A DNA stretch of 64,000 nucleotides from Alphaproteobacteria bacterium (GCA_051885355.1 JBJEXC010000002.1:10496-74495); one strand, 5' to 3'; shown: positions 5,473 through 53,917, counted from the first letter of the stretch. Program-made: numbers and translations. Notes: a model not told the origin generated them from the sequence alone.

Positions 5473-6132
5473 TTATGCTTCTATTGTTTCAGATAATAAC
5501 CAGTTGGAATTCTTTTTTGCATAATCCCTTGAAAAAACTAAAATATCCTTCATTGTTTCAAGTTGATTATCGTCGCCCTTTATAACTTTGCCAGCCTTAT
5601 CCTTTATAAAAGCACATTGTTCGGTTGTATATTCTATAACAATTTTTGCTAATTTATGTTCAATAATTATATCTGTCATAATTATTTTTTTAAAACGAAC
5701 AATTTCTGTAATTAAAGTTTGTTCCTTCTTTTCAATTTCCTTTATTTGCTCATCAAAAAGGTTATAAATATTTTCTGTGACAAGAGGTTTTAAATTTTTT
5801 CTGTCCTTTAATTCCATATATTTTGTAATTTTTTCAAAAGTTTTTTTTGAATTATCAAGAAAAGTTTCTGGATTAAAATCCTTATCTAATTTAGAAAGTT
5901 CCGCCGTTCTTTCGTTTATATGTTCTTTAAGAAGTTGTTGCATAACTTCGTTCACTATACGTTTATCCTTTAATTCCAATATACTTTTTACAAAATTCTT
6001 TTTAAATTGTTGATTTGCTGCAATATCTGAATTTTTATTATTTTTTGCATTTTCAGGTTTAAGTATTCCGTAAAGTGAAATAACTATTACGATAAAAAGT
6101 CCAATAATTAAAAAATCAAATAAATTTAACAT
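5473..6132 (-). CDS. Tim44-like domain protein (membrane-anchored)
   Basis: N-terminal TM helix plus a C-terminal Tim44-like domain. Adjacent to secB, as is typical in alphaproteobacteria. Confidence 0.55.
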   Translation of the reverse strand: MLNLFDFLIIGLFIVIVISLYGILKPENAKNNKNSDIAANQQFKKNFVKSILELKDKRIVNEVMQQLLKEHINERTAELSKLDKDFNPETFLDNSKKTFEKITKYMELKDRKNLKPLVTENIYNLFDEQIKEIEKKEQTLITEIVRFKKIIMTDIIIEHKLAKIVIEYTTEQCAFIKDKAGKVIKGDDNQLETMKDILVFSRDYAKKNSNWLLSETIEA

Positions 6133-6216
6133 TATTACCCTTTAAAAATTTTCTTGTTTAATTTATATAATATAATATAGTATAAATATCAACAAATTTA
6201 AAGAGGAAAAAATAAA

Positions 6217-6687
6217 ATGAATGAAAATTTACAAAACAATACTCAAAAAAAACCTGAATTTGAAATACTTAATCAATTTATAAAGGATTTATCTTTGGAA
6301 GCACCTAACTCTCCTAAGATTTTCTTTGAAAAAATTGAAGAAAAGCCAAATATGGAAATTAATTTGGAAGTAAAATCTACTCCTGTTAATGAAAAACTTT
6401 TTGAAGTAGTTCTTCATATAAAAGTTAAAAATACATTAAAGGAACAAGTTTTATACTTAATTGACCTTTCCTATGGTGCTATGGTGGTTTTAAATGTTGA
6501 AGATGAGGAAACTAAGAAAGCACATCTTTTGAAATCTGTGCCATCATATCTTTTCCCATTTGTAAGGAGTATAATTTCTGATTTAACAAAGGATAGTGGA
6601 TTTATGCCTTTTGTCCTTCAACCTATCAATTTTGATGGATTAAAAGAAGAAAATAAGCAACCTCTTCCTGCAAATGAAAATAAATAG
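6217..6687 (+). CDS. secB: protein-export chaperone SecB
   Basis: 156 aa; SecB-like sequence (…FEVVLHIKVKN…VLYLIDLSYGAMV…CPSYLFPFVRSII…). Confidence 0.85.
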   Translation: MNENLQNNTQKKPEFEILNQFIKDLSLEAPNSPKIFFEKIEEKPNMEINLEVKSTPVNEKLFEVVLHIKVKNTLKEQVLYLIDLSYGAMVVLNVEDEETKKAHLLKSVPSYLFPFVRSIISDLTKDSGFMPFVLQPINFDGLKEENKQPLPANENK

Positions 6688-16756: not shown

Positions 16757-16830
16757 TGGCTGGGGTAAATGGATTCGAACCACTGTTAACAGAGCCAGAA
16801 TCTGTTGTCCTACCACTAGACGATACCCCA
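16757..16830 (-). tRNA. tRNA-Gln (anticodon CTG)
   Basis: The reverse complement TGGGGTATCGTCTAGTGGTAGGACAACAGATTCTGGCTCTGTTAACAGTGGTTCGAATCCATTTACCCCAGCCA folds as a cloverleaf. Anticodon stem is ACAGA/TCTGT and the loop is TTCTGGC. CCA is encoded. Confidence 0.85.
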
Positions 16831-20760: not shown

Positions 20761-21321
20761 TTGAAAAATTACAATAAAAAAGATTTTGATAAATATGTTG
20801 AAATTTTGCTTAAATGGCAAAAATCAATAAATCTTATAAGTCCTAATACTATACCTGTATTATGGGAAAGGCATTTTGAGGATAGTCTTTCGCTATATGA
20901 TTATGTTAAGGATAAAGAAAATATTTTTGATATAGGAAGTGGTGGAGGATTTCCTGCACTTGTTTTAAGTATTGCAGGAATAAAAAATATTACCGTTGTG
21001 GAAAGTGATAAAAGAAAATACTTATTTTTAAATGAGATTAAACGCGCTTATAACCTTGATGTAAAAATTATAAATGATAGAGTGGAAAATCTAATCTTTG
21101 AAAATAAAAATTGTATAATAGGAAGAGCGTTTGCTCCTCTTGATAAATTTCTTAATTTATGTTCTGGGATTATAAATAAAGATAGCGAAATGATTTTATT
21201 AAAAGGAACAAATATAAATACTGAAATAAAAAACTCACAAAAAGACTGGAATTTTGATTATAAATTATATAAAAACAACGATGGATTTATAATTTATGTT
21301 TCAAATATAAGTAAAAAATAA
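20761..21321 (+). CDS. rsmG: 16S rRNA (guanine527-N7)-methyltransferase RsmG (GidB)
   Basis: SAM-binding DIGSGGGFPALVL; TTG start; conserved position upstream of parAB. Confidence 0.75.
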   Translation: MKNYNKKDFDKYVEILLKWQKSINLISPNTIPVLWERHFEDSLSLYDYVKDKENIFDIGSGGGFPALVLSIAGIKNITVVESDKRKYLFLNEIKRAYNLDVKIINDRVENLIFENKNCIIGRAFAPLDKFLNLCSGIINKDSEMILLKGTNINTEIKNSQKDWNFDYKLYKNNDGFIIYVSNISKK

Positions 21322-21334
21322 TGTTAATAAAAAA

Positions 21335-21350
21335 TGTTTCACGTGAAACA
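21335..21350. promoter_or_regulatory. parS: parS centromere site
   Basis: Perfect 16-bp palindrome TGTTTCACGTGAAACA, matching the parS consensus. It lies between rsmG and parA. Confidence 0.85.
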
Positions 21351-21500
21351 ATTTAGCATATTTTTATGTAAAATCAATAACTTAATTTTTCAAAATTTTG
21401 TAATATATTGTTAATAACTTTTTTATTTATAAAAATGGCTTGCAAAGTTTTTGTAAAAATATTATATTTATAATATGAATTTTCAAAATATGGAGGAAAA

Positions 21501-22310
21501 ATGAGCATATTTCAAAATACAAAAATCATTTCAATAACAAATCAAAAGGGCGGGGTTGGTAAAACAACAACTGCTGTTAATCTTGCAACTGCACTTGCAA
21601 GTGTAGATAAAAAAGTTTTGGTAATTGATTTTGATCCACAAGGAAATGCAAGTACTGGACTTGGAATAGAACAAAACGACAGGATTAAAGATATTTATTC
21701 TTTATTATTTGAAAAGAATACTTTTAAAGATTCTATAAAACAAACAAAAATTAAAAATCTTGATGTAATTCCTGCATCTATTGATTTATCGGCTGCGGAA
21801 ATAGAATTATCAAATGTAGAGGATAAAACATTAAAACTTAGAAATTTATTTAAGAAAAATGTTTTTCTTTCACAATATGATTATATATTTATTGATTGTC
21901 CGCCGGCTCTTGGTTATTTAACTATAAACGCCTTGGGTGCTTCTGATTCAGTGATTATACCTTTACAATGTGAATTTTTTGCGTTGGAAGGTGTAAGTCA
22001 TCTTATGAACACAATTCAACTAGTTCAACAAAATATAAATAGTGAGTTGAAAATAGAAGGTGTAATTCTTACTATGTATGATAAAAGGAATAAACTTTCC
22101 GAACTTGTTGAAAAAGATGTAAGAAATTGTTTTGGGGAGTTTGTTTTTGATACAATTATTCCAAGAAATGTCAGAGTATCAGAGGCTCCTTCACATGGAA
22201 AACCAGTGATTTTGTATGATTTTGATTGTGCTGGAAGTCAATCTTATATAAATTTGGCTGCTGAATTTTTAACAAGAAATGAAAATAAAAATTTAAGAAA
22301 GGTTGCGTAA
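21501..22310 (+). CDS. parA: chromosome partitioning ATPase ParA (Soj)
   Basis: Deviant Walker A KGGVGKTT; 269 aa. Confidence 0.9.
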   Translation: MSIFQNTKIISITNQKGGVGKTTTAVNLATALASVDKKVLVIDFDPQGNASTGLGIEQNDRIKDIYSLLFEKNTFKDSIKQTKIKNLDVIPASIDLSAAEIELSNVEDKTLKLRNLFKKNVFLSQYDYIFIDCPPALGYLTINALGASDSVIIPLQCEFFALEGVSHLMNTIQLVQQNINSELKIEGVILTMYDKRNKLSELVEKDVRNCFGEFVFDTIIPRNVRVSEAPSHGKPVILYDFDCAGSQSYINLAAEFLTRNENKNLRKVA

Positions 22311-23213
22311 ATGAAAGTTGAAAATAGATTAGGGAAGGGATTGTCCGCCTTCTTTGAAAATAAAAATCAAGCGGTTCCTGTTTTTAATAACACAACTCAA
22401 GAAATTGTTGATACTTCTGTAAATGAAGTAAAAGAAAATTTGGAAAAGAACGGGATTTTATATATTCCTGTTGGAAATATTGTTGCAAATCCAAATCAAC
22501 CAAGAAAAGAGTTTAAAGAGGAACAACTTCGCGAACTTGCTCTTTCTATTGAAAAAAATGGCGTGTTGCAACCTATTTTAGTAAGGAAAACTTCTACACC
22601 AAATCAATTTGAAATTATTGCTGGTGAAAGAAGATGGAGAGCAGCAAACCTTGCTGGAATTTACGAAATCCCTGCTATTTTAAAAGATTTATCAGATAAA
22701 GAAACTTTTGAAATAGGATTGATTGAAAATTTACAACGCGAAAATCTTTCTCCGATAGAAGAGGGTAATGGTTATAAAAAACTTATGATAGATTTTGGTT
22801 ATACTCAAGAAGATATTGCAAAGTTGATAAATAAAAGTCGCTCTTATGTTGCGAATATTTTGCGACTTCTTGCTCTTCCAAAAGATGTGCAAGAAATGAT
22901 TTCTGATGGAAGGTTATCTTATACTGTTGCAAGAACTTTGATTGGAGAGGAAAATCCTTCTAAAAAAGCAAAATCTCTTATCAAAGGGGATATTAATGCT
23001 AGGGATGCTGAGAAGATGAAAGAGAACATTCCTGTAAATCATAAATCTTCTGATGAGCTTAATCCTGAACTTATATCTCTCAAAGATAATTTGATGGAAC
23101 ACCTTGGTGTGAATGTTGATATTAAATGTAAAAATAACAAAGGTGAGGTTATCATAAAGTTTAAGGATTTAGGTGAACTTGATACACTTATGACTAAACT
23201 AAATAATATATAA
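22311..23213 (+). CDS. parB: chromosome partitioning protein ParB (Spo0J)
   Basis: ParB box GERRWRAA and an HTH region; translationally coupled to parA. Confidence 0.9.
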   Translation: MKVENRLGKGLSAFFENKNQAVPVFNNTTQEIVDTSVNEVKENLEKNGILYIPVGNIVANPNQPRKEFKEEQLRELALSIEKNGVLQPILVRKTSTPNQFEIIAGERRWRAANLAGIYEIPAILKDLSDKETFEIGLIENLQRENLSPIEEGNGYKKLMIDFGYTQEDIAKLINKSRSYVANILRLLALPKDVQEMISDGRLSYTVARTLIGEENPSKKAKSLIKGDINARDAEKMKENIPVNHKSSDELNPELISLKDNLMEHLGVNVDIKCKNNKGEVIIKFKDLGELDTLMTKLNNI

Positions 23214-23268
23214 TAAATATTGTTTTTGTTGGTCGTGTGGAAATTGTTAATTACTTTTTATTAACAGG

Positions 23269-23371
23269 TTATTCACAGAAAAAATTTAAAAAATAGAAAA
23301 AGAGTCCTTTTAAACTGGGATTCTTTTTTTATTTATTCACAGAATTTTGGTAAAGTGTAGAGTTATTCACA
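23269..23371 (+). promoter_or_regulatory. cluster of three DnaA-box 9-mers (TTATTCACA = TTATNCACA)
   Basis: Identical 9-mers at 23269-23277, 23333-23341 and 23363-23371, all in the same orientation, within an AT-rich 247-bp intergenic region. Confidence 0.45.
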
Positions 23372-23432
23372 TGTTTATAAAATTGTTTATTGATTTGTGT
23401 ATAGTTTGCTTTTATACTTTTTTACAAAGTTA

Positions 23433-23448
23433 TTAACAATTTATTAAC
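23433..23448 (+). promoter_or_regulatory. CtrA-box-like motif TTAA-N7-TTAAC
   Basis: ttaacaatttattaac matches the CtrA consensus exactly. It is flanked by a repeated 11-mer ttattaacagg (23258-23268 and 23441-23451). Confidence 0.4.
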
Positions 23449-23459
23449 AGGATTTTTTT

Positions 23460-23675
23460 ATGAGTGTGAAAATAGGTGGGATTTATAAGCATTATAAGGG
23501 AAATTTGTATGAAGTTTTAGCAATTGCAAAGCATAGTGAAACTTTGGAGGATATGGTTGTATATAAAGCTTTATATGGGGAAGGTTTGGTTTGGGTGCGA
23601 CCTTTATCTATGTTTGAGGAGGAAGTTCTTAAAGATAGAGTTGTCGTTAAAAGGTTTGAATTGGTTGAAAAATAG
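23460..23675 (+). CDS. DUF1653-family small protein
   Basis: 71 aa; GIYKHYKGNLYEV…HSETLEDMVVYKALYG…WVRPLSMF matches the DUF1653 pattern. Confidence 0.6.
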   Translation: MSVKIGGIYKHYKGNLYEVLAIAKHSETLEDMVVYKALYGEGLVWVRPLSMFEEEVLKDRVVVKRFELVEK

Positions 23676-23724
23676 TTTTTTTGCTTGATTTTTATAAAAA
23701 CGGTAGTATATTTGTTTTCATTAT

Positions 23725-23799
23725 TGGGGTGTCGCCAAGTGGTAAGGCAGCGGGTTTTGGTTCCGCCATTCGTTGGTTCGAATCCAGCCACCCCAGCCA
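23725..23799 (+). tRNA. tRNA-Gln (anticodon TTG)
   Basis: TGGGGTGTCGCCAAGTGGTAAGGCAGCGGGTTTTGGTTCCGCCATTCGTTGGTTCGAATCCAGCCACCCCAGCCA. Anticodon stem is GCGGG/TCCGC and the loop is TTTTGGT. CCA is encoded. Confidence 0.9.
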
Positions 23800-26895: not shown

Positions 26896-27552
26896 TTACC
26901 AGGATGAGCAAGAATTTTTTATACGGATATATTCTTCATCTGAATCGTGGGCTAAATTTTTATCTATTATTGCCTGTTCTAGGCGGTTTTTGAGTATATT
27001 TAGTTTTTCATCATTTTTTAATAGAATATCGATTTTTTTATTTATTTTTGTTTTTGTTGTATCGGAGGAGGTTAGAAATGGTTTTAAATTTTCAATTAAG
27101 ATTTTCATTTCATCAGTGATAAGTTTGCCGTAGTATTTAAGTTCTTCCTGATAAATATTTATATGACCTTGTTCGTGTTTTTTTATTTCATTGTATTGAC
27201 AGGTATTTTCTTTGTATTTTTCATCTATTATTACATCAAGGGAGTTATATCCTATGTTAAAATCAATAGTATTTATATTTACGCATATTCCGTTTGGTGT
27301 GGGATTTTTATCTATAGTTATAGAGTATTGAATTTGAAAATCTGCTATAGTTAGTCCCATAGTGCGTAGTGGGTTTTTGAGCCCCGATACAGCGATAATT
27401 GCTTCTTTTGGGACAAGTGTATAGGAAGGTGTGCCATAATTGATTGTAGTTGTGATTTTTGGTGTTGTTTTGAATTGGTCGCATTCTGAGTATGCAAATG
27501 TTGGAGTTGAAGTTAATAAAAATAGAGCGATTTTGATAAAATTGCTTTTCAT
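26896..27552 (-). CDS. secreted DUF922-like putative Zn-dependent protease
   Basis: Signal peptide and an HEQGH (HExxH) motif; 218 aa. Confidence 0.45.
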   Translation of the reverse strand: MKSNFIKIALFLLTSTPTFAYSECDQFKTTPKITTTINYGTPSYTLVPKEAIIAVSGLKNPLRTMGLTIADFQIQYSITIDKNPTPNGICVNINTIDFNIGYNSLDVIIDEKYKENTCQYNEIKKHEQGHINIYQEELKYYGKLITDEMKILIENLKPFLTSSDTTKTKINKKIDILLKNDEKLNILKNRLEQAIIDKNLAHDSDEEYIRIKNSCSSW

Positions 27553-27560
27553 TTTAGTGC

Positions 27561-29996
27561 CTATTTAAAATTATCAAGATAGACTTCAACAAATTTGTTT
27601 CCGTGCAATTTTCTTAATTCTTCGGCAAGGAGAACAGCCTTTCTTCCACTGTTGAATAATTGTAGGTATGGACCAAGACCAGATAAATCTATGTTTAATA
27701 TTACAGATTCATCAATAGTTGGTTTGCGGAAAAGGATGGCATATTTTAAATCCTTGTAAATTTTGCCTTGAATAAATGCCATTTCCTTTGGTGTTAGGTT
27801 CCAACTGTCGTAATCTTCTGGTCTTGCCTGAACATTACGGAAGAATATTTGTGTTTGACATTGTCCGCGGATAACCTCACCAATACCTAATTTATCAAGG
27901 ACATTAGGTTGTTGGAATGCAGCAAGGTATGCTTGGCGTTTTTTACGACCTTCCTGTAGACCTATTACAAAATTGTTGCGGAATACTGGGTTTACAAGCA
28001 TAGGTGCAGTTTCATCAATTATGATTAAACTTGGAGCACCAGTTCTGCCAGTTATATTTTGAATGCGGTTCATAATGTAACTGACAACCGCTGGGGCGAG
28101 GGTTTCATCCTCAAAAATATAAGTAAAATCAAAAGTATTGAAGCGATTTGATAAATCCAAACTGTCGGCTTCGCTGTTAAATAAAAGTCCGTATTGATTA
28201 TCATCAACCCAACGGAAAAGTTCCCTTCTCATTTTACCAGCAGGGGAAAAGCAAGATTTGTAAAGGTTTTTAAGACTTCTTTTATTTGGTTCCAAATAAT
28301 CAAAAGAAGTTGTGATTGCGCGGGCTATTTCGGCTTCGCTATTTGCATCATCAACTTGAGTGATTTCTTTTAGCCAACGACGAAGGAAGGCGCGATTTTC
28401 TGGGGTATCATCTATACGGAAAGGGTTAAGGTGTGCGGTTGTGCCACCCTTTACAACATCCTTGTCCTTTGTATCGCCTTCGAAATTTATGTATGAACCG
28501 CCGGCTGCGTAAGTGAAAATTTCTGCGCCACGGTGGCGATCGAAAAAGAATACTCTTAAATCATCGAATCGCAAAGATTGTCCGGCAAGGAAAGAGTAAA
28601 GAGTTGTTTTACCTTGACCAGTTGGACCTATTGCCACTGTATGGGCTACGGCTGCGGGTTCATCGGATACATGAAATTCAAATTGATATGCGGTTCCTTG
28701 ATATGTTGGGAATATAGCAATAGGACCATTTCCCCAGTCGCATTTTGATAAACCCTCCGGTTGGTGTTCAAAATTAAAACTTGTTGCAACTGCGCGGGAT
28801 AGCATTTTATACATTCTTGGGTATTTATCATAGGTTGGGAATTGTGAGAACCAAGAACTTTGTGCAATCCAACCTTCGCGAACTGGTGTTAATCCGTAAA
28901 GTCGGCAAATTTTTTCAATTTCAAATACGGCTTCGTCCAGACCTTTGAAACTGTCGCTTGTGATGAAAAAAGTTTCTGCATAATTAACAAGGGTTTGGTG
29001 ATCTTCGTCATTTTGTTCTATTAATGCAAGGGCATCATCAAATTGGCGTAAAACATCGTAAGAGAAAGTGCTTGAACTTGCCATTCTTCGTTGATTTACC
29101 AAAATCATTTGTGCTTTCATTTTTGGAATAGGGAATAAGTTATGTAAAACTGTTATTTCATAGTTAAGGGCGAGAATATCGGAGAGCATTTGCTCATCAA
29201 CTGTATTTGATTGTTGCTTTATACCGACAACTGCCATATATTTTTCGCGACCTCCGGAACGAAAACGAATATATCCTTTGTTAGAAAAGAATATTTCATC
29301 GGATACCATAAGTTCAGAAATATTATCAAAAACTATGTTTTCAGATTTTGGGTTAGGGCGAGATATAGGGTTTATTATATGGGCGAAAAATGTAAGTGGG
29401 CTTTCGTTTATGCCATCTTCTTTTAAAATTTTTACACCGAAGTTGGAAAGAATTGCTTCTAAGTTACTTGATGCGGTATCTAAATCCTTTAGGGCATCCT
29501 TTCTGTCGTTGACAGATATGACAATGTAATGGGAGTTTTTGAAAATTTCCTTTTGTGCTTCGCTCCATTTTTCAGAAATTTCCTTTAATACTTTGTTATC
29601 GTTGTTTATAACCTTTTCTGTTTTGACCTTTTCACGAATTGTGAAAATACGGCTTTCAATACTTATTTCAGATAAAGAATCAATCCATTTTTTTCTTTCT
29701 TCAAGCAAAGATTGTATTGTTTCACGGCGGGCAAATGCTATGCTTGCACCATGAATTTTGAAAATACGAACTAAACTTCCGTTGGAGCAGAGTATAGTTT
29801 TTTTATCATCCAATAATTTTTCAAATGGAAGGTAGTCAATAAGTCTTGTATCATAAGGGCGTGGAAGAAATAAGTTTGATTTTTTTGATATTATTACAGT
29901 TATTATTATAGCAATGGCAATAATACCCAAAATCAATGATATTGTGTAAGTGTTTGATAAGTTCATAAGTAATATTTTTGATAAGTTAAAATTCAT
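27561..29996 (-). CDS. virB4: type IV secretion system ATPase VirB4
   Basis: 811 aa; Walker A GPTGQGKTT; CagE/TrbE/VirB4 family layout; follows virB3. Confidence 0.9.
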   Translation of the reverse strand: MNFNLSKILLMNLSNTYTISLILGIIAIAIIITVIISKKSNLFLPRPYDTRLIDYLPFEKLLDDKKTILCSNGSLVRIFKIHGASIAFARRETIQSLLEERKKWIDSLSEISIESRIFTIREKVKTEKVINNDNKVLKEISEKWSEAQKEIFKNSHYIVISVNDRKDALKDLDTASSNLEAILSNFGVKILKEDGINESPLTFFAHIINPISRPNPKSENIVFDNISELMVSDEIFFSNKGYIRFRSGGREKYMAVVGIKQQSNTVDEQMLSDILALNYEITVLHNLFPIPKMKAQMILVNQRRMASSSTFSYDVLRQFDDALALIEQNDEDHQTLVNYAETFFITSDSFKGLDEAVFEIEKICRLYGLTPVREGWIAQSSWFSQFPTYDKYPRMYKMLSRAVATSFNFEHQPEGLSKCDWGNGPIAIFPTYQGTAYQFEFHVSDEPAAVAHTVAIGPTGQGKTTLYSFLAGQSLRFDDLRVFFFDRHRGAEIFTYAAGGSYINFEGDTKDKDVVKGGTTAHLNPFRIDDTPENRAFLRRWLKEITQVDDANSEAEIARAITTSFDYLEPNKRSLKNLYKSCFSPAGKMRRELFRWVDDNQYGLLFNSEADSLDLSNRFNTFDFTYIFEDETLAPAVVSYIMNRIQNITGRTGAPSLIIIDETAPMLVNPVFRNNFVIGLQEGRKKRQAYLAAFQQPNVLDKLGIGEVIRGQCQTQIFFRNVQARPEDYDSWNLTPKEMAFIQGKIYKDLKYAILFRKPTIDESVILNIDLSGLGPYLQLFNSGRKAVLLAEELRKLHGNKFVEVYLDNFK

Positions 29997-30005
29997 TTAC
30001 TTTCC

Positions 30006-30299
30006 TTATGGTGCAAATTTGTTGCCATGTTCTTTTATTAAATTTTTTGTTTTTGCCTTTATGTTTGTTCTTGCACTTATTATATTGTCAATGTGGGGTT
30101 CTTTTTTTGCAAGAAGGATAAGTAATAAATGGATTATTACTATTTGTAACATAGGAATCCATATATAACCTATAAGTCTGAAGACTAAAAAAATCATTAT
30201 TTCAACTATACCAATGGTTAAGTTGAAAATGGATAGTCCAAATGGTGCAAATAAAATTAAACTTGGATATGCAATTGATTTTAAAAGTTCTTCTTTCAA
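30006..30299 (-). CDS. virB3: type IV secretion system protein VirB3
   Basis: 97 aa, two TM helices, immediately upstream of virB4. Confidence 0.7.
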   Translation of the reverse strand: MKEELLKSIAYPSLILFAPFGLSIFNLTIGIVEIMIFLVFRLIGYIWIPMLQIVIIHLLLILLAKKEPHIDNIISARTNIKAKTKNLIKEHGNKFAP

Positions 30300-30367
30300 T
30301 ATTCCCCCCTAAATACTTATAGTAAATTTTATATGAAAAGCCTTTAAAATACAAGTAAAAATTCTAT

Positions 30368-30775
30368 TTATTTCTTGTTTTTACCAAGGCCCGTTTTTTT
30401 TGCCAGTGTGCTTCTTTTTTTTGCATAATTTGGGGCAATCATAGGATAATCAGATGGCAAGGACCATTTTTCCCTGTAATCTTTATCGCTCATATTGTAT
30501 TTTGTTTTTAAATAGCGTTTTAGCATTTTTAATTTTTTGCCGTCTTCTAAACATACTATGTATTCTGGATGGATAGAATCTTTTATATCGACAGATGGTT
30601 TAAAAGTGTAAGAAGAGGTTTTATCGGTAATTGAAATAAGGTTTGAATAAACACTTTCTATTAATTCCGCTATATTATTTTTTTCAATGGAATTATTTGA
30701 AATATAACTGCTTACTATTTGTGAAGTTGCTGATATTATTGAAAGTTGAAGATTTTCAGATATATTTTTTTTCAT
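30368..30775 (-). CDS. mucR: Ros/MucR family transcriptional regulator (zinc-ligand-deficient variant)
   Basis: The C-terminal half aligns with the Ros/MucR zinc-finger region (IVCLEDGKKLKMLKRYLKTKYNMSDKDYREKW…PMIAPNYAKKRSTLAKKTGLG). The second Cys and both His ligands are replaced by D, Y and Y. Confidence 0.75.
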   Translation of the reverse strand: MKKNISENLQLSIISATSQIVSSYISNNSIEKNNIAELIESVYSNLISITDKTSSYTFKPSVDIKDSIHPEYIVCLEDGKKLKMLKRYLKTKYNMSDKDYREKWSLPSDYPMIAPNYAKKRSTLAKKTGLGKNKK

Positions 30776-34189: not shown

Positions 34190-35311
34190 TTATATTCTCA
34201 TAGGCATAAGAACATAGATTGCAGATGTGTCATCAAGTTCTGTTATTATTGCAGGTGATGAGCCATCAGAAATCATAAATTTCATAAATTTGCCTTCTAT
34301 CTGTGATGCAATATCAAGTAGGTATTTGGAGTTAAATCCAATTTCCATTGCATCGCTGTCGTATACAACTTCTAAATCTTCGAATGCACTACCTGAATCT
34401 GGGGTTGATGCAAGAAGAGTTAATTTTGATTTTGAAAGTTTAAGTTTGATAGCCTTTGATTTTTCATAAGCAACAGATGATACACGGTCAACTGCCTCTG
34501 AGAAAAGTTTGCAATCTACTTCCATTGCTTTGTCATTTGATGTTGGAATAACCTTTTCATAATCAGGGAATTTTCCATCAATAAGTTTTGAAGTGATTGT
34601 TGTTCCGCTGAAAGAAAATCTTGCCTTTGTTTCGCTTATTTCAACATTGATATCTGATGATGTATCTTCAAGAAGAGCACGAAGTTCAGTTACAACTTTT
34701 CTTGGGATAATGATGCTTGGCATACCCTTTGCACCTTCTGGACTTAGAACATCTTGACGAGCAAGACGATGACCATCAGTTGCAACAGCACGAAGAAGTT
34801 CCTTGCCGTCCTTTTCTAATGTATGGAAGAAGATACCGTTTAAGAAGTAGCGAGTTTCTTCTGTGGATACAGCGAATTTTGTTTTATCAATAAGTTTTAT
34901 TAAATCATCGCATGGAAGTGTGAATTTGAATGGCATTGATGAACTGTTCATTAATGGGAAATCATCAACTGGAAGGGATGGAAGTGTAAATTCTGAATTT
35001 CCAGCCTTTATTACAACCTTTGCATTATCAGATGATGTTTTAAGTTCAATGTTTCCCTCTGGAAGTTTACGAACTATATCATATAAGATATGTGCAGGGA
35101 TTGTTGTTGAACCCTTTTCGTTTATAGTTGCCTCTAAAACCTCGATAATTTCCAAATCTATATTTGTAGCAGTGAATTTTAGGTTATCGCCCGCTTCTAT
35201 TTTAATATTTGAAAGAACAGGAATTGTAGATTTTTTTTCAACAATTCTGTATAAGTGAGAAAGAGTTTTTGATAGGTTTGCTTTTTCAATAGTAATATAC
35301 ATTTTTTTCAT
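34190..35311 (-). CDS. dnaN: DNA polymerase III subunit beta (sliding clamp)
   Basis: 373 aa; three-domain clamp-like sequence. Confidence 0.85.
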   Translation of the reverse strand: MKKMYITIEKANLSKTLSHLYRIVEKKSTIPVLSNIKIEAGDNLKFTATNIDLEIIEVLEATINEKGSTTIPAHILYDIVRKLPEGNIELKTSSDNAKVVIKAGNSEFTLPSLPVDDFPLMNSSSMPFKFTLPCDDLIKLIDKTKFAVSTEETRYFLNGIFFHTLEKDGKELLRAVATDGHRLARQDVLSPEGAKGMPSIIIPRKVVTELRALLEDTSSDINVEISETKARFSFSGTTITSKLIDGKFPDYEKVIPTSNDKAMEVDCKLFSEAVDRVSSVAYEKSKAIKLKLSKSKLTLLASTPDSGSAFEDLEVVYDSDAMEIGFNSKYLLDIASQIEGKFMKFMISDGSSPAIITELDDTSAIYVLMPMRI

Positions 35312-37483: not shown

Positions 37484-39910
37484 ATGTTAAAATTATTTGC
37501 TGAAAAATTTGGTATGGGGGGGGGTAAAAACCCTGTAAAATCAAATAGTTACAAAAACTTTGCAATCTGTCTTTGTTTAATATTTTTTATATCTCTAACT
37601 ATATTTGCTTTGTCTGGTTCTGTGAATGCGGCAAGAAATGTTAGAGGTAACAGAAATGGTGGTGTTAAAAAAACAAGTGGGGCAAAGAAAGCAGGTAATG
37701 TTAATAAATCTAATAGTAGTTCAAATAAATCTATACCTGTAAATGCTAATAGGAAGGCTAGAGCGGCTGTTACTAATAAAAGGTCTGCGACTTCAGGTAA
37801 TGCAAAAAGGGCTGGCGTTTCTGGAAATGTTAGAAAGGCTAGAGTGGTTTCTGCTAGAAAGACTGTTAATAATAGGGCGTTAAGAGGAAAAATAAAAGCC
37901 GAAGAGGAAGCAAGTTTGGAAGAGACAGAAACTTTATCCTCAGAAGTAGTAAATAAGATGTCTGAACATGATAGAAAATTTAAAAAATTAGCTGAGTTGA
38001 AAGGTTTGGCAAACGACTGTCCTGTTGAAAAGGCTCTTGGTAGAAAAATTGATGAAGATGGTGATGAATTTTTCTATACAGGAAAAGAACCTTTTAATGG
38101 AGAAAATTTTTGTGATGAAAGACTTATATTATCTAATCAAATTGCTGATTTATATAAATGGAAAGAAAGTGACAAAGAAAAATATCCTAGGGGTAGTTTG
38201 GATGATAGTGATGAAATTTTTTATTTTAAATGTAAGGAAGGTTATGTTGCTAAAAATAACAGTGATGGTATAAGGACTTGTGTATCAGTTTGTCCTTTGA
38301 ATGTTGCTTTGGAAAAAAGTGCAAGTTATGAAGATAAATATATTTCTCCAACAAATGGTTTGATTTGTTCTGTTCCAGCAAATTCAAAAGCAAGACTTGT
38401 CAAAGATGGTGAAAATACAAGAAGTGATTTGGATGATGAAAATGCTTATATAGTAGAATGTAATGCAAATAAATATTCTGCTGTGTTAGATGGTTCTGAT
38501 TCGGAAGTGCATTATCAATGTTTGACTTGTCCAAGTGGGTATGTGTCCTCTGCTGGTGCAAAATCTGTTGCTGAATGTAAGGAAGAATGTAAAGGGGATA
38601 AGATTAAACTTGATGATGGAAGTTGTGTTGCTTGTGATGCGAATGCTTCTGTATCGGGTAATTCCTGTATCTGTAAAGATGGTTATTATGGTAAGGGATA
38701 TGGAACTGATGGATGTGTGACTTGTCCTTCTGGATATGTATGTTCTGGTGGTGAAAAGAAATCCAAATATGTAAGTGAACAGGCGGAAGAAACATCATCC
38801 AATGAACAACAATCTTGTCCAGAGGGTTCAAAACCTTCCTCTGATGGCACAACTTGTGTTTGTGATGATAGTAATTATACTTTTGATTCAAAATCCAATA
38901 GTTGTGTGGAAAAAGTTTGTGGTTCAAATGAAGTTAAAATGTCAGATGGAACTTGTAAAGCAATATCTAGTTTGGTTGCATCTGAATTTAACAGAGTTGC
39001 CACAGGAAAATCTGGTAATTCCAATTGTCCAACTGGTGATTTGGAGGCTGGTGTCTACTTAGTTACACTTAAAGGTGGTAATGGTGGAAACAGCGGTAGT
39101 AGTGGAAAAAATAAGGCTGGTCAAACAGAGAAAGATGTTTCCGGTGGAAAGGGTGCAAAATTGCAATATGTATTTAAGTTGAGTAAAAATGCAACTTTTG
39201 AAATTTGTGCCGGTGAAAATGGTAAATTGCCTGCTGATACAGATTCTCCAAATGAAGGAGGCGGTGGCGGTGGTGGATCATGGCTTAACATTAATTCACC
39301 TGAATTTTCTGGCGATGTCTACTTTGTTGCCGGTGGTGGTGGCGGTGCATCCGCAGACTATGCTGGTCAAGACGGCGGTGGCGGCGGTGGCGGCGGCGGT
39401 ATTGGTGCCGGTGGTGCTGCTGGTGAAGGTAAAGGTTATAGTTATGGTGGTTACGGTGGTATGAGTGGAAAATACCCTGGTGGAGTATACAAGCAATATA
39501 ATGATAATAATAAAAGTGGTGTAACAAAACTTTACGGTTACATACCTGATATTGCGAAGGGTTTAAATGACAGTAATCCGCTTTTGATGGGTGATTCTGG
39601 TAGAAGCGGTGGTGGTGCCGGTGGTGGAAATGGTGGTGACGGTGGTGACGGTCAAGAATGGTTTGGTAACGCTAATTGTGCAAAGGGTGCTGTTGCAAAT
39701 ATAGATACTATAAACATTATTGACTTTGACGGTAAAGTTACAAAGCAAAGCCAACAATACGGTGGTAAAGGTGGTGTTGCTTGTCAAGCCTCTCACCATA
39801 GAGCCGGATATGATGGTGAAAGTTCACATATTTCGAATATAAACCTTTCGAATTTATGTGGTGGAAGCAATAAGGCTGATGCCTGTGCTGAACTTTACAA
39901 GTTAAAATAA
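37484..39910 (+). CDS. large secreted/anchored protein: basic low-complexity region, Cys-rich ephrin-receptor/TNFR-like repeats, C-terminal polyglycine-rich (ALK/LTK GlyR-like) domain
   Basis: 808 aa. TM/signal segment at aa 26-48, then a K/R/N-rich stretch. More than 40 Cys in CxxCPSGY-type repeats, for example TCVTCPSGYVCSGG. The C-terminus has G6-G10 runs spaced by short beta-like strands (YVFKLSKNATFEICAGENGK / EGGGGGGGSW / VYFVAGGGGGAS / GGGGGGGGGIGAGG). Confidence 0.6.
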   Translation: MLKLFAEKFGMGGGKNPVKSNSYKNFAICLCLIFFISLTIFALSGSVNAARNVRGNRNGGVKKTSGAKKAGNVNKSNSSSNKSIPVNANRKARAAVTNKRSATSGNAKRAGVSGNVRKARVVSARKTVNNRALRGKIKAEEEASLEETETLSSEVVNKMSEHDRKFKKLAELKGLANDCPVEKALGRKIDEDGDEFFYTGKEPFNGENFCDERLILSNQIADLYKWKESDKEKYPRGSLDDSDEIFYFKCKEGYVAKNNSDGIRTCVSVCPLNVALEKSASYEDKYISPTNGLICSVPANSKARLVKDGENTRSDLDDENAYIVECNANKYSAVLDGSDSEVHYQCLTCPSGYVSSAGAKSVAECKEECKGDKIKLDDGSCVACDANASVSGNSCICKDGYYGKGYGTDGCVTCPSGYVCSGGEKKSKYVSEQAEETSSNEQQSCPEGSKPSSDGTTCVCDDSNYTFDSKSNSCVEKVCGSNEVKMSDGTCKAISSLVASEFNRVATGKSGNSNCPTGDLEAGVYLVTLKGGNGGNSGSSGKNKAGQTEKDVSGGKGAKLQYVFKLSKNATFEICAGENGKLPADTDSPNEGGGGGGGSWLNINSPEFSGDVYFVAGGGGGASADYAGQDGGGGGGGGGIGAGGAAGEGKGYSYGGYGGMSGKYPGGVYKQYNDNNKSGVTKLYGYIPDIAKGLNDSNPLLMGDSGRSGGGAGGGNGGDGGDGQEWFGNANCAKGAVANIDTINIIDFDGKVTKQSQQYGGKGGVACQASHHRAGYDGESSHISNINLSNLCGGSNKADACAELYKLK
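37516..37524 (+). repeat. G9 homopolymeric tract in the 5' coding region
   Basis: atGGGGGGGGGt encodes MGGGK; nine consecutive G in an ~30% GC genome. Confidence 0.8.
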
Positions 39911-44853: not shown

Positions 44854-46695
44854 TTATTTCTTAACATACTTTAGAAGGGATGTCAAGGCGGCAGGGGTTA
44901 TTCCAGGTATTCGTGAAGCAGAGGCAAGAGTTTCTGGTTTTGTAGTTTTAAGTTTGTTTTTTACCTCTAATGTAAGACCGCCTATTTTATCATAATTAAT
45001 GTTTGCTGGGATTTTTAGGCTTTGATCTTTTTTGTATGCCTCTATATCCTTTTCTTGTCGTTTAAGATAGCCTTGATATTTACCCTCTATTTCAATTTGT
45101 TTTACGATAGAATTTTCAAAGGTATCAATTTTTGGGAAAAGTTTTCTTAATACTACCATATCAATTTCAGCATAGCGGAGGGCATCGTATAAATTTTTTC
45201 CGGCGATGCCTGCGACATTGATATTGACACTTTTAAGTAGTTTAAGATTTAGTTTGTGGGAGGTTAAGAATTTTTTAAAATCCTCCATCTTTTTAATTTT
45301 TTCATTAAAAAAGCCGGCTCTTTTGTTACTTACTACACCAATTTTGATACCGATAGGGGTTAGTCGTTGGTCGGCGTTGTCCGCCCTTATAGAAAGGCGA
45401 TATTCGGAGCGGGAGGTGAACATTCGGTATGGCTCATCTACACCAAGGGTTGTAATATCATCAACTAAGACACCAATATAAGCTTGGGAACGATCAAGTG
45501 TGATTTCATCACAACCCTTTGCGAAAAGTCCGGCATTGATACCGGCGAGTATTCCCTGTGAAGCGGCCTCTTCGTATCCGCTGGTGCCATTTATTTGACC
45601 GGCAAAGTAAAGTCCCTTTATTCGTTTAGAACCCAAAGTTGGTTTTAATTCTCTTGCATCAATTGCATCGTATTCAATTGCGTATCCATAGCGAAGAATT
45701 TTTACATTTTCCAAACCCTTTATAGAGTGGATAAAGTCTTCTTGCACATCCTTTGGAAGGGAAGTTGAAATACCGTTTGGATAAATGACATCGGAGCCAT
45801 AACCTTCTTGTTCCAAAAATATATGATGAGATTCGTGATGGGCGAATCTGACAACTTTATCCTCTATACTTGGGCAATATCTAGGTCCAATAGATTTTAT
45901 TTGTCCGTTATAAAGTGGGGTTCGGTCCTTATTATCAGTAATAATTTTATGGGTTTTGAGATTTGTATAAGTGATGTAGCAAGGAAGCATTTCTTGACTT
46001 ATTTTTTCGGTCATATATGAAAAAGCCTCTGGCACTTCATCACTTTCTTGGCATTCAAGTTCGGAGTAATTAATAGTTTTTTTTGAAAGGCGAGCAGGGG
46101 TTCCAGTTTTAAGTCGTAAAATGGAAAAGCCGGCTTTTTTGAGCGATTCTGTTATTCCGTAGGAGGCATTTTCACCAATTCTTCCACCTATGGTTTTTTC
46201 CTCTCCCGTATGCATAATGCCATTTAAAAATGTTCCGGTTGTAAGGACAACTGACTTACAATCTATTTGTCTTTTGGATTTTAAAACAACACCATTTACA
46301 GATGAAAAATCGTTATTAAATAAGATTTCAATAACTTCATCTTCTATTATATCAAGGGTTTTATATTCTGATAGAATTTCGTTGACTGCTTTTTTATAAA
46401 GGGTTCTGTCTGCTTGTGCTCGAGGGCCTTGGACTGCGGCACCCTTTGATGCGTTAAGGACACGAAATTGGGTTCCGGCTTTATCAATAGCCCTTGCCAT
46501 AACACCATCTAAAGCATCAATTTCACGGACAAGATGACCTTTCCCCAAACCACCGATAGATGGGTTACAACTCATTTCGCCAATATTTCCTTTTGAAAAA
46601 GTTATAAGGGCGGTTTTTTGCCCTAATCTTGCAGAAGCACTTGCTGCTTCAATACCTGCATGTCCGGCACCGACAACAACTACATCGTATTCCAT
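44854..46695 (-). CDS. mnmG: tRNA uridine 5-carboxymethylaminomethyl modification enzyme MnmG (GidA)
   Basis: 613 aa; FAD-binding YDVVVVGAGHAG; characteristic MnmG sequence. Confidence 0.9.
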   Translation of the reverse strand: MEYDVVVVGAGHAGIEAASASARLGQKTALITFSKGNIGEMSCNPSIGGLGKGHLVREIDALDGVMARAIDKAGTQFRVLNASKGAAVQGPRAQADRTLYKKAVNEILSEYKTLDIIEDEVIEILFNNDFSSVNGVVLKSKRQIDCKSVVLTTGTFLNGIMHTGEEKTIGGRIGENASYGITESLKKAGFSILRLKTGTPARLSKKTINYSELECQESDEVPEAFSYMTEKISQEMLPCYITYTNLKTHKIITDNKDRTPLYNGQIKSIGPRYCPSIEDKVVRFAHHESHHIFLEQEGYGSDVIYPNGISTSLPKDVQEDFIHSIKGLENVKILRYGYAIEYDAIDARELKPTLGSKRIKGLYFAGQINGTSGYEEAASQGILAGINAGLFAKGCDEITLDRSQAYIGVLVDDITTLGVDEPYRMFTSRSEYRLSIRADNADQRLTPIGIKIGVVSNKRAGFFNEKIKKMEDFKKFLTSHKLNLKLLKSVNINVAGIAGKNLYDALRYAEIDMVVLRKLFPKIDTFENSIVKQIEIEGKYQGYLKRQEKDIEAYKKDQSLKIPANINYDKIGGLTLEVKNKLKTTKPETLASASRIPGITPAALTSLLKYVKK

Positions 46696-52275: not shown

Positions 52276-53157
52276 TTAAGCGTCGGCTTCTTCCTTATGT
52301 TCAACACCATCACCAACAGCAAAGCGAATAAATTTTACAATCTTTGCATCGTCAGATATTGATTTAACAACATCTTTGATTTTCTTTGATGGTTCCATAA
52401 AGAATGCTTGTTCGGTTAAAACAACTTCTTCGTAATATTTGTTGATTCTTCCGTTAATCATCTTTTCAACTATTTCAGCAGGTTTTCCAGATTGCATTGC
52501 TGTATCACGGAAAATTGCCTTTTCACGTTCAAGAGAAGCCTCATCAACATCAGCAATATTTAAGAATGCAGGAGCAGATGCAGCAATGTGCATTGCAATG
52601 GTGTCGCCTACTTCCATAATTTTTGCTTTGTCAGCAGATGATTCAATTGCAACAAGAACAGCAATCATACCCATACCTTCTGCGACACGGTTGTGAATGT
52701 ATGAAATAACTGCGCCGTTTGAAACTTCAACCATATCACTTCTACGAATATTAAGGTTTTCACCGATAGTTGCAATTTCATTTGCTAAAGCATCAGCAAC
52801 TGGCATACCATCAATAGTTGCGGATTTGATTTTTTCAATGTCGCCATTTTCGTTGTATGCAACATCAGCAACTTTTTTAACGAATGCTTGGAATTTTTCG
52901 TTTCTTGCAACGAAGTCAGTTTCAGAGTTTACTTCAACAACAACACCTTTGTTACCTTCAACTTTAACAGCAACAACGCCGGCAGATGCTTCTCTGTCAC
53001 CCTTTTTAGCAGCCTTTGATAAACCTTTTTTTCTCAAGATATCAATTGCGGCTTCTATATCACCATTTGCTTCAATAAGTGCCTTTTTACAATCCATCAT
53101 TCCGGCACCGGTTCTTTCTCTTAAATCTTTAACTAAACTAGCAGTAACTTCTGTCAT
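52276..53157 (-). CDS. tsf: elongation factor Ts
   Basis: 293 aa; N-terminal UBA-like LVKDLRERTGAGMMDCKKAL; conserved rpsB-tsf order. Confidence 0.9.
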   Translation of the reverse strand: MTEVTASLVKDLRERTGAGMMDCKKALIEANGDIEAAIDILRKKGLSKAAKKGDREASAGVVAVKVEGNKGVVVEVNSETDFVARNEKFQAFVKKVADVAYNENGDIEKIKSATIDGMPVADALANEIATIGENLNIRRSDMVEVSNGAVISYIHNRVAEGMGMIAVLVAIESSADKAKIMEVGDTIAMHIAASAPAFLNIADVDEASLEREKAIFRDTAMQSGKPAEIVEKMINGRINKYYEEVVLTEQAFFMEPSKKIKDVVKSISDDAKIVKFIRFAVGDGVEHKEEADA

Positions 53158-53158
53158 A

Positions 53159-53917
53159 TTATGCCTCCTTTTTTACTTCAACTTTTGGGTTAAGTGCAGC
53201 ACCTATATCAGCACCAGATTTTTTAAGTTGTTCTTCTAAGCCGTCAAGAACAGCCTTTACTGCTAAATCACAATAAAGTTTGATTGCCTTGATTGCGTCA
53301 TCATTAGCAGGAATTGGGAAGTCAACATTGCTTGGGTCAGAATTTGTATCGCAAATTGCAACAACTGGAATGCCAAGTTTGTTTGCTTCTACAATAGCCA
53401 AATCTTCTTTACTTGCATCAATTACGAAAATTATATCAGGAGCGCCGTTCATATCCATAACACCGCCAAGAACAGCCTTTAATTTTCTAAGTTCAAGTTC
53501 CATTTTTGCGATTTCTTTTTTTGTAAGACCTAATTTGTCAGCATTTTCAATATCAGATTCCATTCTTTTAAGTTTTTTAATGGAATTTACAACTGTTTTC
53601 CAGTTTGTAAGCATACCACCTAGCCAACGAGTATTGATATAGTATTGTCCGCACATTTCAGCAGATTCGCGAACTATATCTTGAGCTTGTCTTTTTGTTC
53701 CAACGAATAAAACTTTACCACCGTTTGCGGCAACATTTCTTAATGCAACAAGACCAGCGTGTAGCATAGGAACAGTTTTTTGTAGGTCGATAATGTGAAT
53801 CTTATCTTTTACACCGAAGATATATGGTGCCATTTTTGGGTTCCAACGACGAGTATGATGTCCGAAGTGGCTTCCTGCTTCAATAAGTTCTTTCATAGTA
53901 AATTTAGGGAATGTCAT
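53159..53917 (-). CDS. rpsB: 30S ribosomal protein S2
   Basis: 252 aa; S2-typical sequence (…LIEAGSHFGHHTRRWNPKM…). Confidence 0.9.
   Translation of the reverse strand: MTFPKFTMKELIEAGSHFGHHTRRWNPKMAPYIFGVKDKIHIIDLQKTVPMLHAGLVALRNVAANGGKVLFVGTKRQAQDIVRESAEMCGQYYINTRWLGGMLTNWKTVVNSIKKLKRMESDIENADKLGLTKKEIAKMELELRKLKAVLGGVMDMNGAPDIIFVIDASKEDLAIVEANKLGIPVVAICDTNSDPSNVDFPIPANDDAIKAIKLYCDLAVKAVLDGLEEQLKKSGADIGAALNPKVEVKKEA

Follow-up and report, generated by a model that had tools for sequence, protein, structure and literature searches.

Introduction

In Pseudomonas aeruginosa, the DnaA boxes of oriCII are located upstream of the gidAB-parAB genes and regulate that operon (PMC13438810), and in Bacillus subtilis the DnaA-box clusters (DBCs) proximal to oriC regulate neighbouring genes and restrain initiation with Spo0J/Soj (PMC3245932). 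The datA site of Escherichia coli adjoins a tRNA operon whose terminator matters for the function of datA (PMC10950094), and binding of DnaA to Caulobacter parS is attributed to Mera 2014 by PMC11151105 and PMC6667618. The arrangement of a box pair together with a DnaA-trio is known as the BUS module (PMC8287927). Here we describe the spacer between parB and a DUF1653 gene in a 64,000-nucleotide stretch of DNA from an uncultured gut alphaproteobacterium (GCA_051885355.1 JBJEXC010000002.1:10496-74495; the whole stretch is referred to as the window), which was compared with metagenome-assembled genomes of relatives from the human (Hadza) gut, the rumen and the deer rectum. We know of no defined origin for any of these uncultured Alphaproteobacteria of the gut and rumen.

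An earlier interpretation of the window, referred to here as the sequence-only reading, had singled out this spacer as a candidate replication origin or regulatory hub. Our analysis suggests that it is a credible but unproven replication-start or replication-control site carrying a conserved array of DnaA boxes, and DnaA is probably the protein that binds them. We tentatively take the spacer to be an origin-linked DnaA assembly site, presumably the site (oriC) at which rightward chromosome replication starts in this clade or the right-hand border of that site, and it would also control the promoter of the DUF1653 gene. This fuller reading is a real possibility that stops short of being probable.

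A conserved array of DnaA boxes downstream of parB

Three identical copies of the 9-mer TTATTCACA are present on the + strand of the spacer, all within 103 bp and at the places where the sequence-only reading had put them (Table 1). The 9-mer occurs five times on both strands of the window against 1.49 expected, a count reached in 0 of 100 shuffles; it is rare, so the concern that it might simply be a common word is not borne out. The repeat unit can be written as TTATT[C/A]ACA and six co-oriented + strand copies were found in the spacer (starting at 23258, 23269, 23333, 23363, 23430 and 23441). Window-wide this unit has 14 copies where 4.9 are expected, and its density outside the spacer predicts only 0.03 copies in 247 bp (Poisson P ~1e-12). 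Chance clustering of the boxes was ruled out by the shuffles and the Poisson estimate.

When at most one mismatch to the DnaA-box consensus TTATNCACA was allowed, the spacer held eight sites in 300 bp and the next densest 300 bp of the window held four; three perfect and five one-mismatch sites lie within 200 bp. Most box copies match TTATNCACA at 9/9 positions. The units at 23258/23269 and at 23430/23441 form tandem pairs with an 11-bp spacing and 2-bp gaps, and the duplicated 11-mer TTATTAACAGG at 23258 and 23441, which had been noticed earlier as a separate repeat and is indeed present, represents two copies of the one 9-mer unit.

The parB-DUF1653 junction with its spacer was found in relatives L001-L008, L012 (the one further close relative given by a scan of JGI metagenomes), L092/L097 and L098, in which ParB identity ranges from 92% to 63%. 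Our alignments show that five boxes are kept in the same orientation and at fixed offsets from the parB stop codon (+55, +120, +150, +217 and +228) in 12 related genomes, among them L001-L008, L012, L092 and L098, and they are nearly the sole TTATT[C/A]ACA copies within the ~9-kb locus of each relative. Position 6 of the unit was observed to alternate between C and A, with TTATTAACA forming every box in L005 and L007. In L012, a perfect 18-bp palindrome is formed at box +150. The cluster of DnaA-box matches that had been claimed is bona fide, and its positions are conserved by selection beside the centromere.

The motif was observed to be nearly limited to the par locus across the ~110 kb of sequence examined, and no TTATT[C/A]ACA was found in stretches L101, L102 and L104 of the L092 genome, which lie ~-47 to -8 kb from the spacer. 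Two perfect TTATCCACA boxes (7004 and 8538) are located 1.5 kb apart inside rlpA and carD in L104, and no skew step was seen at this pair. The same stretch of this Hadza-gut genome contains a tRNA followed by a ~125-bp direct duplication (5888-6265), at a distance of ~41 kb to the left of the spacer. Among distant parB loci (35-44% identity), 0 of 54 had TT[A/T]TNCACA within 450 bp downstream of parB, and the DUF1653 genes seen in Bacteroidota-like and Firmicutes settings lack an upstream parB as well as upstream boxes. The array thus belongs to this clade alone. A general place of DUF1653 in the DnaA regulon is unsupported, since the genes of other phyla have no upstream DnaA boxes; a homologue, 3be3, has a solved structure and is uncharacterised. 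A full-text literature search for the two 9-mers gave no replication-relevant result.

The perfect parS of the sequence-only reading was also confirmed and is unique in the window. A parS was present in every relative whose rsmG-parA spacer was examined. In the window it is flanked by two TTATTAACA units on the strand opposite to that of the main array, and parAB is therefore bracketed by outward-facing units. Relatives L001, L002 and L008 have kept these flanking units, which are degenerate in L003, L004 and L007.

A step in strand composition at the spacer

The third-position G/C skew (GC3 skew) of each gene, taken on the + strand, was fitted as c × coding strand + r, where r is the strand-independent, replication-type component. 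A change-point scan which allowed r one step was applied to three genomes with long flanks, namely the window joined to L011 (a Logan contig identical to the left end of the window, which adds 5.6 kb), L098 and an L092 composite (59 genes, -46.5 to +9.3 kb). In 3/3 genomes the best step is located 0.2 kb from the centre of the spacer. The value of r is positive on both sides in the window with L011, rising from ~+0.30 on the left to ~+0.49 on the right (24/1000 permutations reached the improvement), and it rises from 0.11 to 0.50 in L098 (0/1000) and from -0.01 to +0.46 in the L092 composite (0/500). Binned r in the L092 genome is flat over 47 kb on the left (-0.07 to +0.10) and 0.41-0.51 on the right, and the T/A skew steps at the same spacer position. 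Short loci with genes on both sides agree in 8/8 cases, with r on the left (-0.15 to +0.25) lower than r on the right (0.39 to 0.57); L012 has no callable gene right of the spacer. A skew switch had been expected of an origin by the sequence-only reading. In per-gene GC3 no sign reversal was found, but a step with the polarity of an origin is present at the spacer.

Genes of both strands right of the spacer were observed to have G in excess of C on the + strand. The G-rich strand is usually the leading strand, and under this rule the right-side forks always travel outward from the spacer. By the same rule, the left side would be copied in no consistent direction in most lineages. Orthologous left-flank genes in the window genome lie almost uniformly 0.34 above those of L092 (+0.34), on either strand, and r on the left differs even between close lineages, with a fourfold-site identity of 0.51-0.68 indicating turnover on that timescale. 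The DUF1653 gene, with which the strongly skewed side begins, has an extreme third-position excess of G over C in every genome (0.79-0.90). On the left, a Tim44-like gene (window 5473-6132, -; L100 19063-19713) has a GC3 skew opposite to that of its neighbours (-0.30 in the window and -0.60 in the L092 genome).

Several other causes of the step were considered and rejected. A simple origin at which the skew changes sign within the window fits poorly, as detailed below. The co-orientation of the units and the many - strand essential genes to the right had suggested a polar fork barrier or terminus; this was rejected since forks on the skewed side move away from the spacer and since parS, dnaN, gidA and gyrB mark an origin-proximal region. 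Lineages as distant as 63% in ParB identity have the parB|DUF1653 junction in common and the skew should have relaxed, which makes an old, still relaxing inversion breakpoint an unlikely cause. A mosaic of small inversions on the left does not agree with per-gene r values that are centred on 0 and not bimodal. The simplest remaining reading would be that the spacer is, at least some of the time, a starting point of forks, or was one through much of the history of the clade.

Terminator, promoter and other elements of the spacer

The parB 3' end carries an intrinsic (Rho-independent) terminator inside the array, which a simple terminator scan had missed. Two of the seven pairs of its hairpin show compensatory changes (GAATCCC/GGGATTC vs AAACCCC/GGGGTTT) and the T7 tail is present in all relatives. 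Both arms of the hairpin contain GANTC. This sequence is scarce in the window (111 against 176 expected, with at least 111 in 100/100 shuffles) and the spacer has two of the sites; such scarcity would fit CcrM-type methylation.

Downstream of the terminator, a sigma-70-type promoter of the DUF1653 gene was found to be conserved in our alignments. Boxes +217 and +228 lie just downstream of its -10 hexamer and before the AGGA ribosome-binding site of DUF1653. Relative to the promoter, boxes are located at ~+5 to +25 downstream and at ~-20 and ~-50 upstream. In the segment that follows the first tandem pair, GAAAAAAT(T)T shows no variation, unlike the remainder. The tgtggaaa element reported by the sequence-only reading is present as an inverted box-like element. 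Its failure to co-vary with box +55 in L005 and L007 marks it as a site in DNA, not as one arm of an RNA stem. A structured RNA beyond the terminator in the parB 3' untranslated region was rejected on the same grounds: the predicted long-range stem consists of two inverted DNA sites and is broken without compensation in those relatives. An Rfam search returned tRNAs only.

Table 1. Positions of the spacer elements, the parS-flanking units and neighbouring genes in the window.
Feature	Position	Strand	Remarks
parS, TGTTTCACGTGAAACA, perfect	21335..21350	.	only match in the window at <=3 mismatches
TTATTAACA unit directly left of parS	21322..21330	-	+ strand reading TGTTAATAA
Second TTATTAACA unit, right of parS	21409..21417	-	upstream of the parA promoter
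parB	22311..23213	+	300 aa; ParB_N, HTH_ParB, ParB_C
parB-DUF1653 spacer	23214-23459		246 bp
TTGTTnTTGTTG motif just past the parB stop codon	23220..23232	+	conserved in the alignment
Inverted box-like element TGTG[G/A]AAA[T/C]	23236..23244	-	reverse complement ATTTCCACA; invariant
Box +45, TTATTAACA	23258..23266	+	only in the window and L006
Box +55, TTATTCACA	23269..23277	+	all relatives; GAAAAAAT always directly after
A-tract and AT-rich stretch 3' of the tandem boxes	23278..23301	+	24 bp, ~88% AT; sole candidate unwinding segment
parB intrinsic terminator	23302..23330	+	7-bp hairpin (GAGTCCT / GGGATTC) and T7; between boxes +55 and +120
Box +120, TTATTCACA	23333..23341	+	
Box +150, TTATTCACA, with abutting degenerate inverted unit TGTTTATAA	23363..23380	+	
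DUF1653 promoter, sigma-70 type, TTGATT-N17-TATACT	23390..23418	+	hexamers and 17-nt spacing conserved in the alignment
Boxes +217 and +228, both TTATTAACA	23430..23449	+	starts 11 bp apart; between the -10 and the ribosome-binding site
DUF1653 gene	23460..23675	+	71 aa; synteny with parB confined to this clade
tRNA-Gln(UUG)	23725..23799	+	own promoter-like site at 23685-23712
dnaN	34190-35311	-	~+11 kb from the spacer
gidA/mnmG	44854-46695	-	~+22 kb from the spacer

Gene neighbourhood

The gene order at the locus is uvrD (+), a TPR protein gene (-), rsmG-parA-parB (+), the spacer, DUF1653 (+) and tRNA-Gln(UUG) (+). The neighbourhood is that of an origin-proximal region, with parS 1.9 kb from the spacer, rsmG-parAB adjoining it and both dnaN and gidA in the window. 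In the L092 genome, gyrB, dnaG and dnaB were found at ~-33 kb, ~-29 kb and ~-47 kb relative to the spacer. No hemE or dnaA was found in Pfam scans of the main open reading frames (ORFs) of the window, and the COG1806/hemE flanks of a Caulobacter-type Cori are absent, the spacer being flanked by parB and DUF1653. Neither dnaA nor a true skew switch was reached when walking left along the 715-kb Hadza contig to -47 kb.

Gene pairs that are separated in the window point to old rearrangements. The genes frr-uppS-cdsA (320-2459, +) lie apart from rpsB-tsf (52276-53917, -), and gidA lies apart from rsmG-parAB (20761-23213, +). Both the rpsB-tsf|frr pair and the gidA|rsmG pair face inwards, which argues for two nested old inversions (~0.3-52.2 kb and 20.8-44.9 kb), and both of these span the spacer. 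Nested inversions spanning a site are a pattern typical for origin regions. No pyrH was seen beside either half, frr-uppS-cdsA or rpsB-tsf. Two glutamine tRNA genes are also inverted relative to each other, with tRNA-Gln(CUG) (16757-16830, -) and tRNA-Gln(UUG) enclosing uvrD-TPR-rsmG-parAB-spacer-DUF1653. In addition, dnaN, tig, grpE, gidA, tsf, rpsB, infB, nusA and rimP (33590-61061) are all on the - strand, which is lagging by skew, and this run has unusually many head-on essential genes.

Two further regions were noticed right of the spacer. A lone virB4-type ATPase gene and a hypothetical gene beside a Ros/MucR regulator (26896-30775) look like the remnant of a type IV secretion locus; the virB4 gene order is kept in L092 and L098, where a VirB3-like gene follows virB4. 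An ORF of 808 aa at 37484-39910 (+) has no Pfam or NCBIfam match, a GC content of 0.38-0.40 that is above its surroundings and a GC3 skew of ~0, and may be foreign DNA.

A possible origin-linked assembly site and alternative roles

Binding by DnaA is favoured because the sites match the consensus, are asymmetric and co-oriented, show 2-bp tandem gaps and are rare outside the par locus. In an origin-linked assembly site, DnaA would bind the consensus TTATTCACA boxes and then spread cooperatively to the TTATTAACA variants, with the co-orientation and the 11-bp tandem pairs favouring a head-to-tail filament. The A-tract and AT-rich segment would be the candidate melting site, and the parB terminator between boxes +55 and +120 may shield the array from parAB read-through. 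DnaA bound to boxes +217 and +228 would repress DUF1653. The absence of an opposite skew on the left may be caused by frequent failure of the leftward fork at the ParB-parS complex and at the parAB operon that it meets head-on, or alternatively by a second start site further left. The origin and regulatory roles are mutually compatible. Of the origin or regulatory hub of the sequence-only reading, the origin lacks a sign switch and has an origin-polarity step, and the region of terminator plus promoter fits the term regulatory hub.

A number of observations weigh against an origin at this place. A simple bidirectional origin predicts a mirror-image skew, and in the relatives r on the left is ~0 as far as -47 kb and nowhere ~-0.47. 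A sign switch at 23 kb in the window fits ~5x worse than none (residual sum of squares 10058 vs 2077). The left flank of the window is leading-like, with binned r of 0.32-0.39 and + strand GC3 skews of +0.17 to +0.42 for the minus-strand genes at 8-14 kb, and the 5.6 kb left extension by L011 shows no skew flip. The missing mirror image requires an extra assumption. Genes do not diverge from the spacer, ~68% of the left coding sequence pointing to it, and, with neither dnaA nor hemE found, a second and better box cluster may exist elsewhere. The C at position 6 of the DnaA box is described as essentially invariant in the DnaA-box literature, and in L005 and L007 this position is A in every box. 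Terminator and promoter occupy most of the spacer and leave only ~25 bp of AT-rich DNA. The spacer was correctly called AT-rich (78% AT), but it is ordinary among the spacers of the window, which range from 65 to 84%. No WATCAANNNNTTR consensus for IHF was found in 23100-23560, so a search that the sequence-only reading had proposed gave no match in or beside the spacer. There are at most 2-3 NAN trios after the box pair, and the published pattern needs at least three (PMC8287927).

The main alternative is a DnaA-box cluster outside oriC, that is, a regulatory or titration site beside the centromere with the true origin further left, which we consider a serious and yet rather unlikely possibility. 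DnaA would then repress the DUF1653 promoter through the two boxes past the -10 with the upstream boxes assisting, and the site may soak up or inactivate DnaA after origin duplication, coupling initiation to the par locus. The promoter geometry, with boxes downstream and upstream of conserved hexamers, the terminator inside the array, the positive skew on both sides in the window and the extra TTATTAACA units at parS on the other side of parAB are all consistent with such a site, for which there are published precedents in Caulobacter, P. aeruginosa, B. subtilis and E. coli. It gives, however, no reason why all the genomes examined should have their skew step at the spacer. Both datA and DARS2 carry an IHF site between their boxes, unlike this spacer, and the DUF1653 genes of other phyla are without upstream DnaA boxes.

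The skew step is also left unexplained if the 9-mers are sites of a transcription factor or nucleoid protein other than DnaA that is specific to the par locus, their match to the DnaA consensus being coincidental; in one form of this idea, a roadblock would curb the sliding of ParB out of parS and into DUF1653 and tRNA-Gln. The free use of C or A at position 6, including the relatives with A throughout, the L012 palindrome of a kind that dimeric regulators prefer and the near confinement of the motif to the par locus point in this direction. Since most copies fit TTATNCACA at 9/9, the sites are asymmetric and co-oriented with tandem gaps as in DnaA arrays, and no candidate regulator gene is linked to the locus, we regard this explanation as improbable. 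Quite improbable, in our estimate, is an origin with habitually one-sided replication, in which a rightward fork would always leave and the leftward fork would run into the head-on rsmG-parAB and into ParB-parS within 2 kb and get through only some of the time, or a second start on the left would be used in alternation. The left side would then be copied both ways, giving a net skew of ~0 in most of the clade and +0.3 in the window lineage, with a strong skew on the right.

A Caulobacter-type origin or cell-cycle hub gated by CtrA, with a functional site at 23433-23448, is highly improbable. The exact TTAA-N7-TTAAC match claimed by the sequence-only reading is present there, and GANTC is scarce in the window with two sites in the spacer. 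Such matches occur at chance frequency (5 in the window against 3.3 expected, reached by 21/100 shuffles), and this one, TTAACAATTTATTAAC, arises where the units at 23430 and 23441 overlap: it is created by two adjacent TTATTAACA units. The C/A swap breaks the match in L001, L002, L003 and L006 while TTATT[C/A]ACA is kept, and therefore the CtrA match is not what selection maintains. On its chance frequency and its breakage in these four relatives, the CtrA box was rejected as a functional unit. Furthermore, the spacer has a single site against five in Cori, where multiple conserved CtrA sites are found, and has no hemE/COG1806 flank and no IHF site.

Comparison with known systems

An origin-linked DnaA assembly site next to parB would, if it is the origin, occupy another place than the origins of Caulobacter, Rickettsia and Wolbachia, which are linked to hemE. 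Standard bidirectional replication does not lead one to expect a skew discontinuity that is one-sided, shared across a clade and located at a DnaA-box array, and if the one-sided model were true, the locus would be a natural bacterial case of partly unidirectional or dual-site chromosome replication. If the spacer is not an origin, it would be a clear natural DnaA-box cluster tied to a centromere, extending the DnaA-ParABS coupling of Caulobacter, Bacillus and Pseudomonas. The locus could also be used as an anchor for peak-to-trough estimates of growth rate in gut metagenomes.

With the DnaA-dependent oriC of E. coli and B. subtilis (BUS module, PMC8287927) the spacer shares a co-oriented cluster of TTATNCACA-type boxes with tandem pairs spaced by 2 bp, an AT-rich stretch 3' of a box pair, the rsmG/gidB-parAB and parS neighbours and a skew discontinuity at the site. 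Unlike these origins it shows no mirror skew to its left, and it has just ~25 bp of AT-rich DNA with at most 2-3 NAN trios, a terminator and promoter embedded in the array, a common TTATTAACA variant and no dnaA nearby. The Caulobacter Cori and the hemE-linked origins of Rickettsia and Wolbachia (PMC1914354) are likewise alphaproteobacterial, with DnaA boxes in an AT-rich spacer and GANTC, but in the present case the array lies directly downstream of parB, the hemE or COG1806 flanks (COG1253 in Wolbachia) are absent, the CtrA site is not conserved and an IHF consensus site is lacking.

The oriCII of P. aeruginosa, a former cryptic origin candidate, resembles this locus in having a DnaA-box cluster at the gid-par genes. 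Its boxes lie upstream of gidA and drive the operon promoter, whereas the boxes of the present spacer follow parB and lie on both sides of the promoter of DUF1653, and gidA has been split from rsmG by inversion. The DBCs of B. subtilis and datA are not reported to coincide with skew discontinuities, unlike this spacer, and differ from it further in that the boxes here are all co-oriented and without an IHF site. They are similar in being near-origin intergenic boxes that overlap the promoters or terminators of neighbouring genes, and datA also lies beside tRNA genes. In Caulobacter, as far as the works citing Mera 2014 describe it, DnaA binds at parS itself and the origin is a separate, defined site, whereas our main array is 1.9 kb from parS and units flanking parS occur only in the closer relatives. 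On the same sources, the two alphaproteobacterial systems are alike in placing DnaA sites near parS/parB, where initiation would be linked to segregation.

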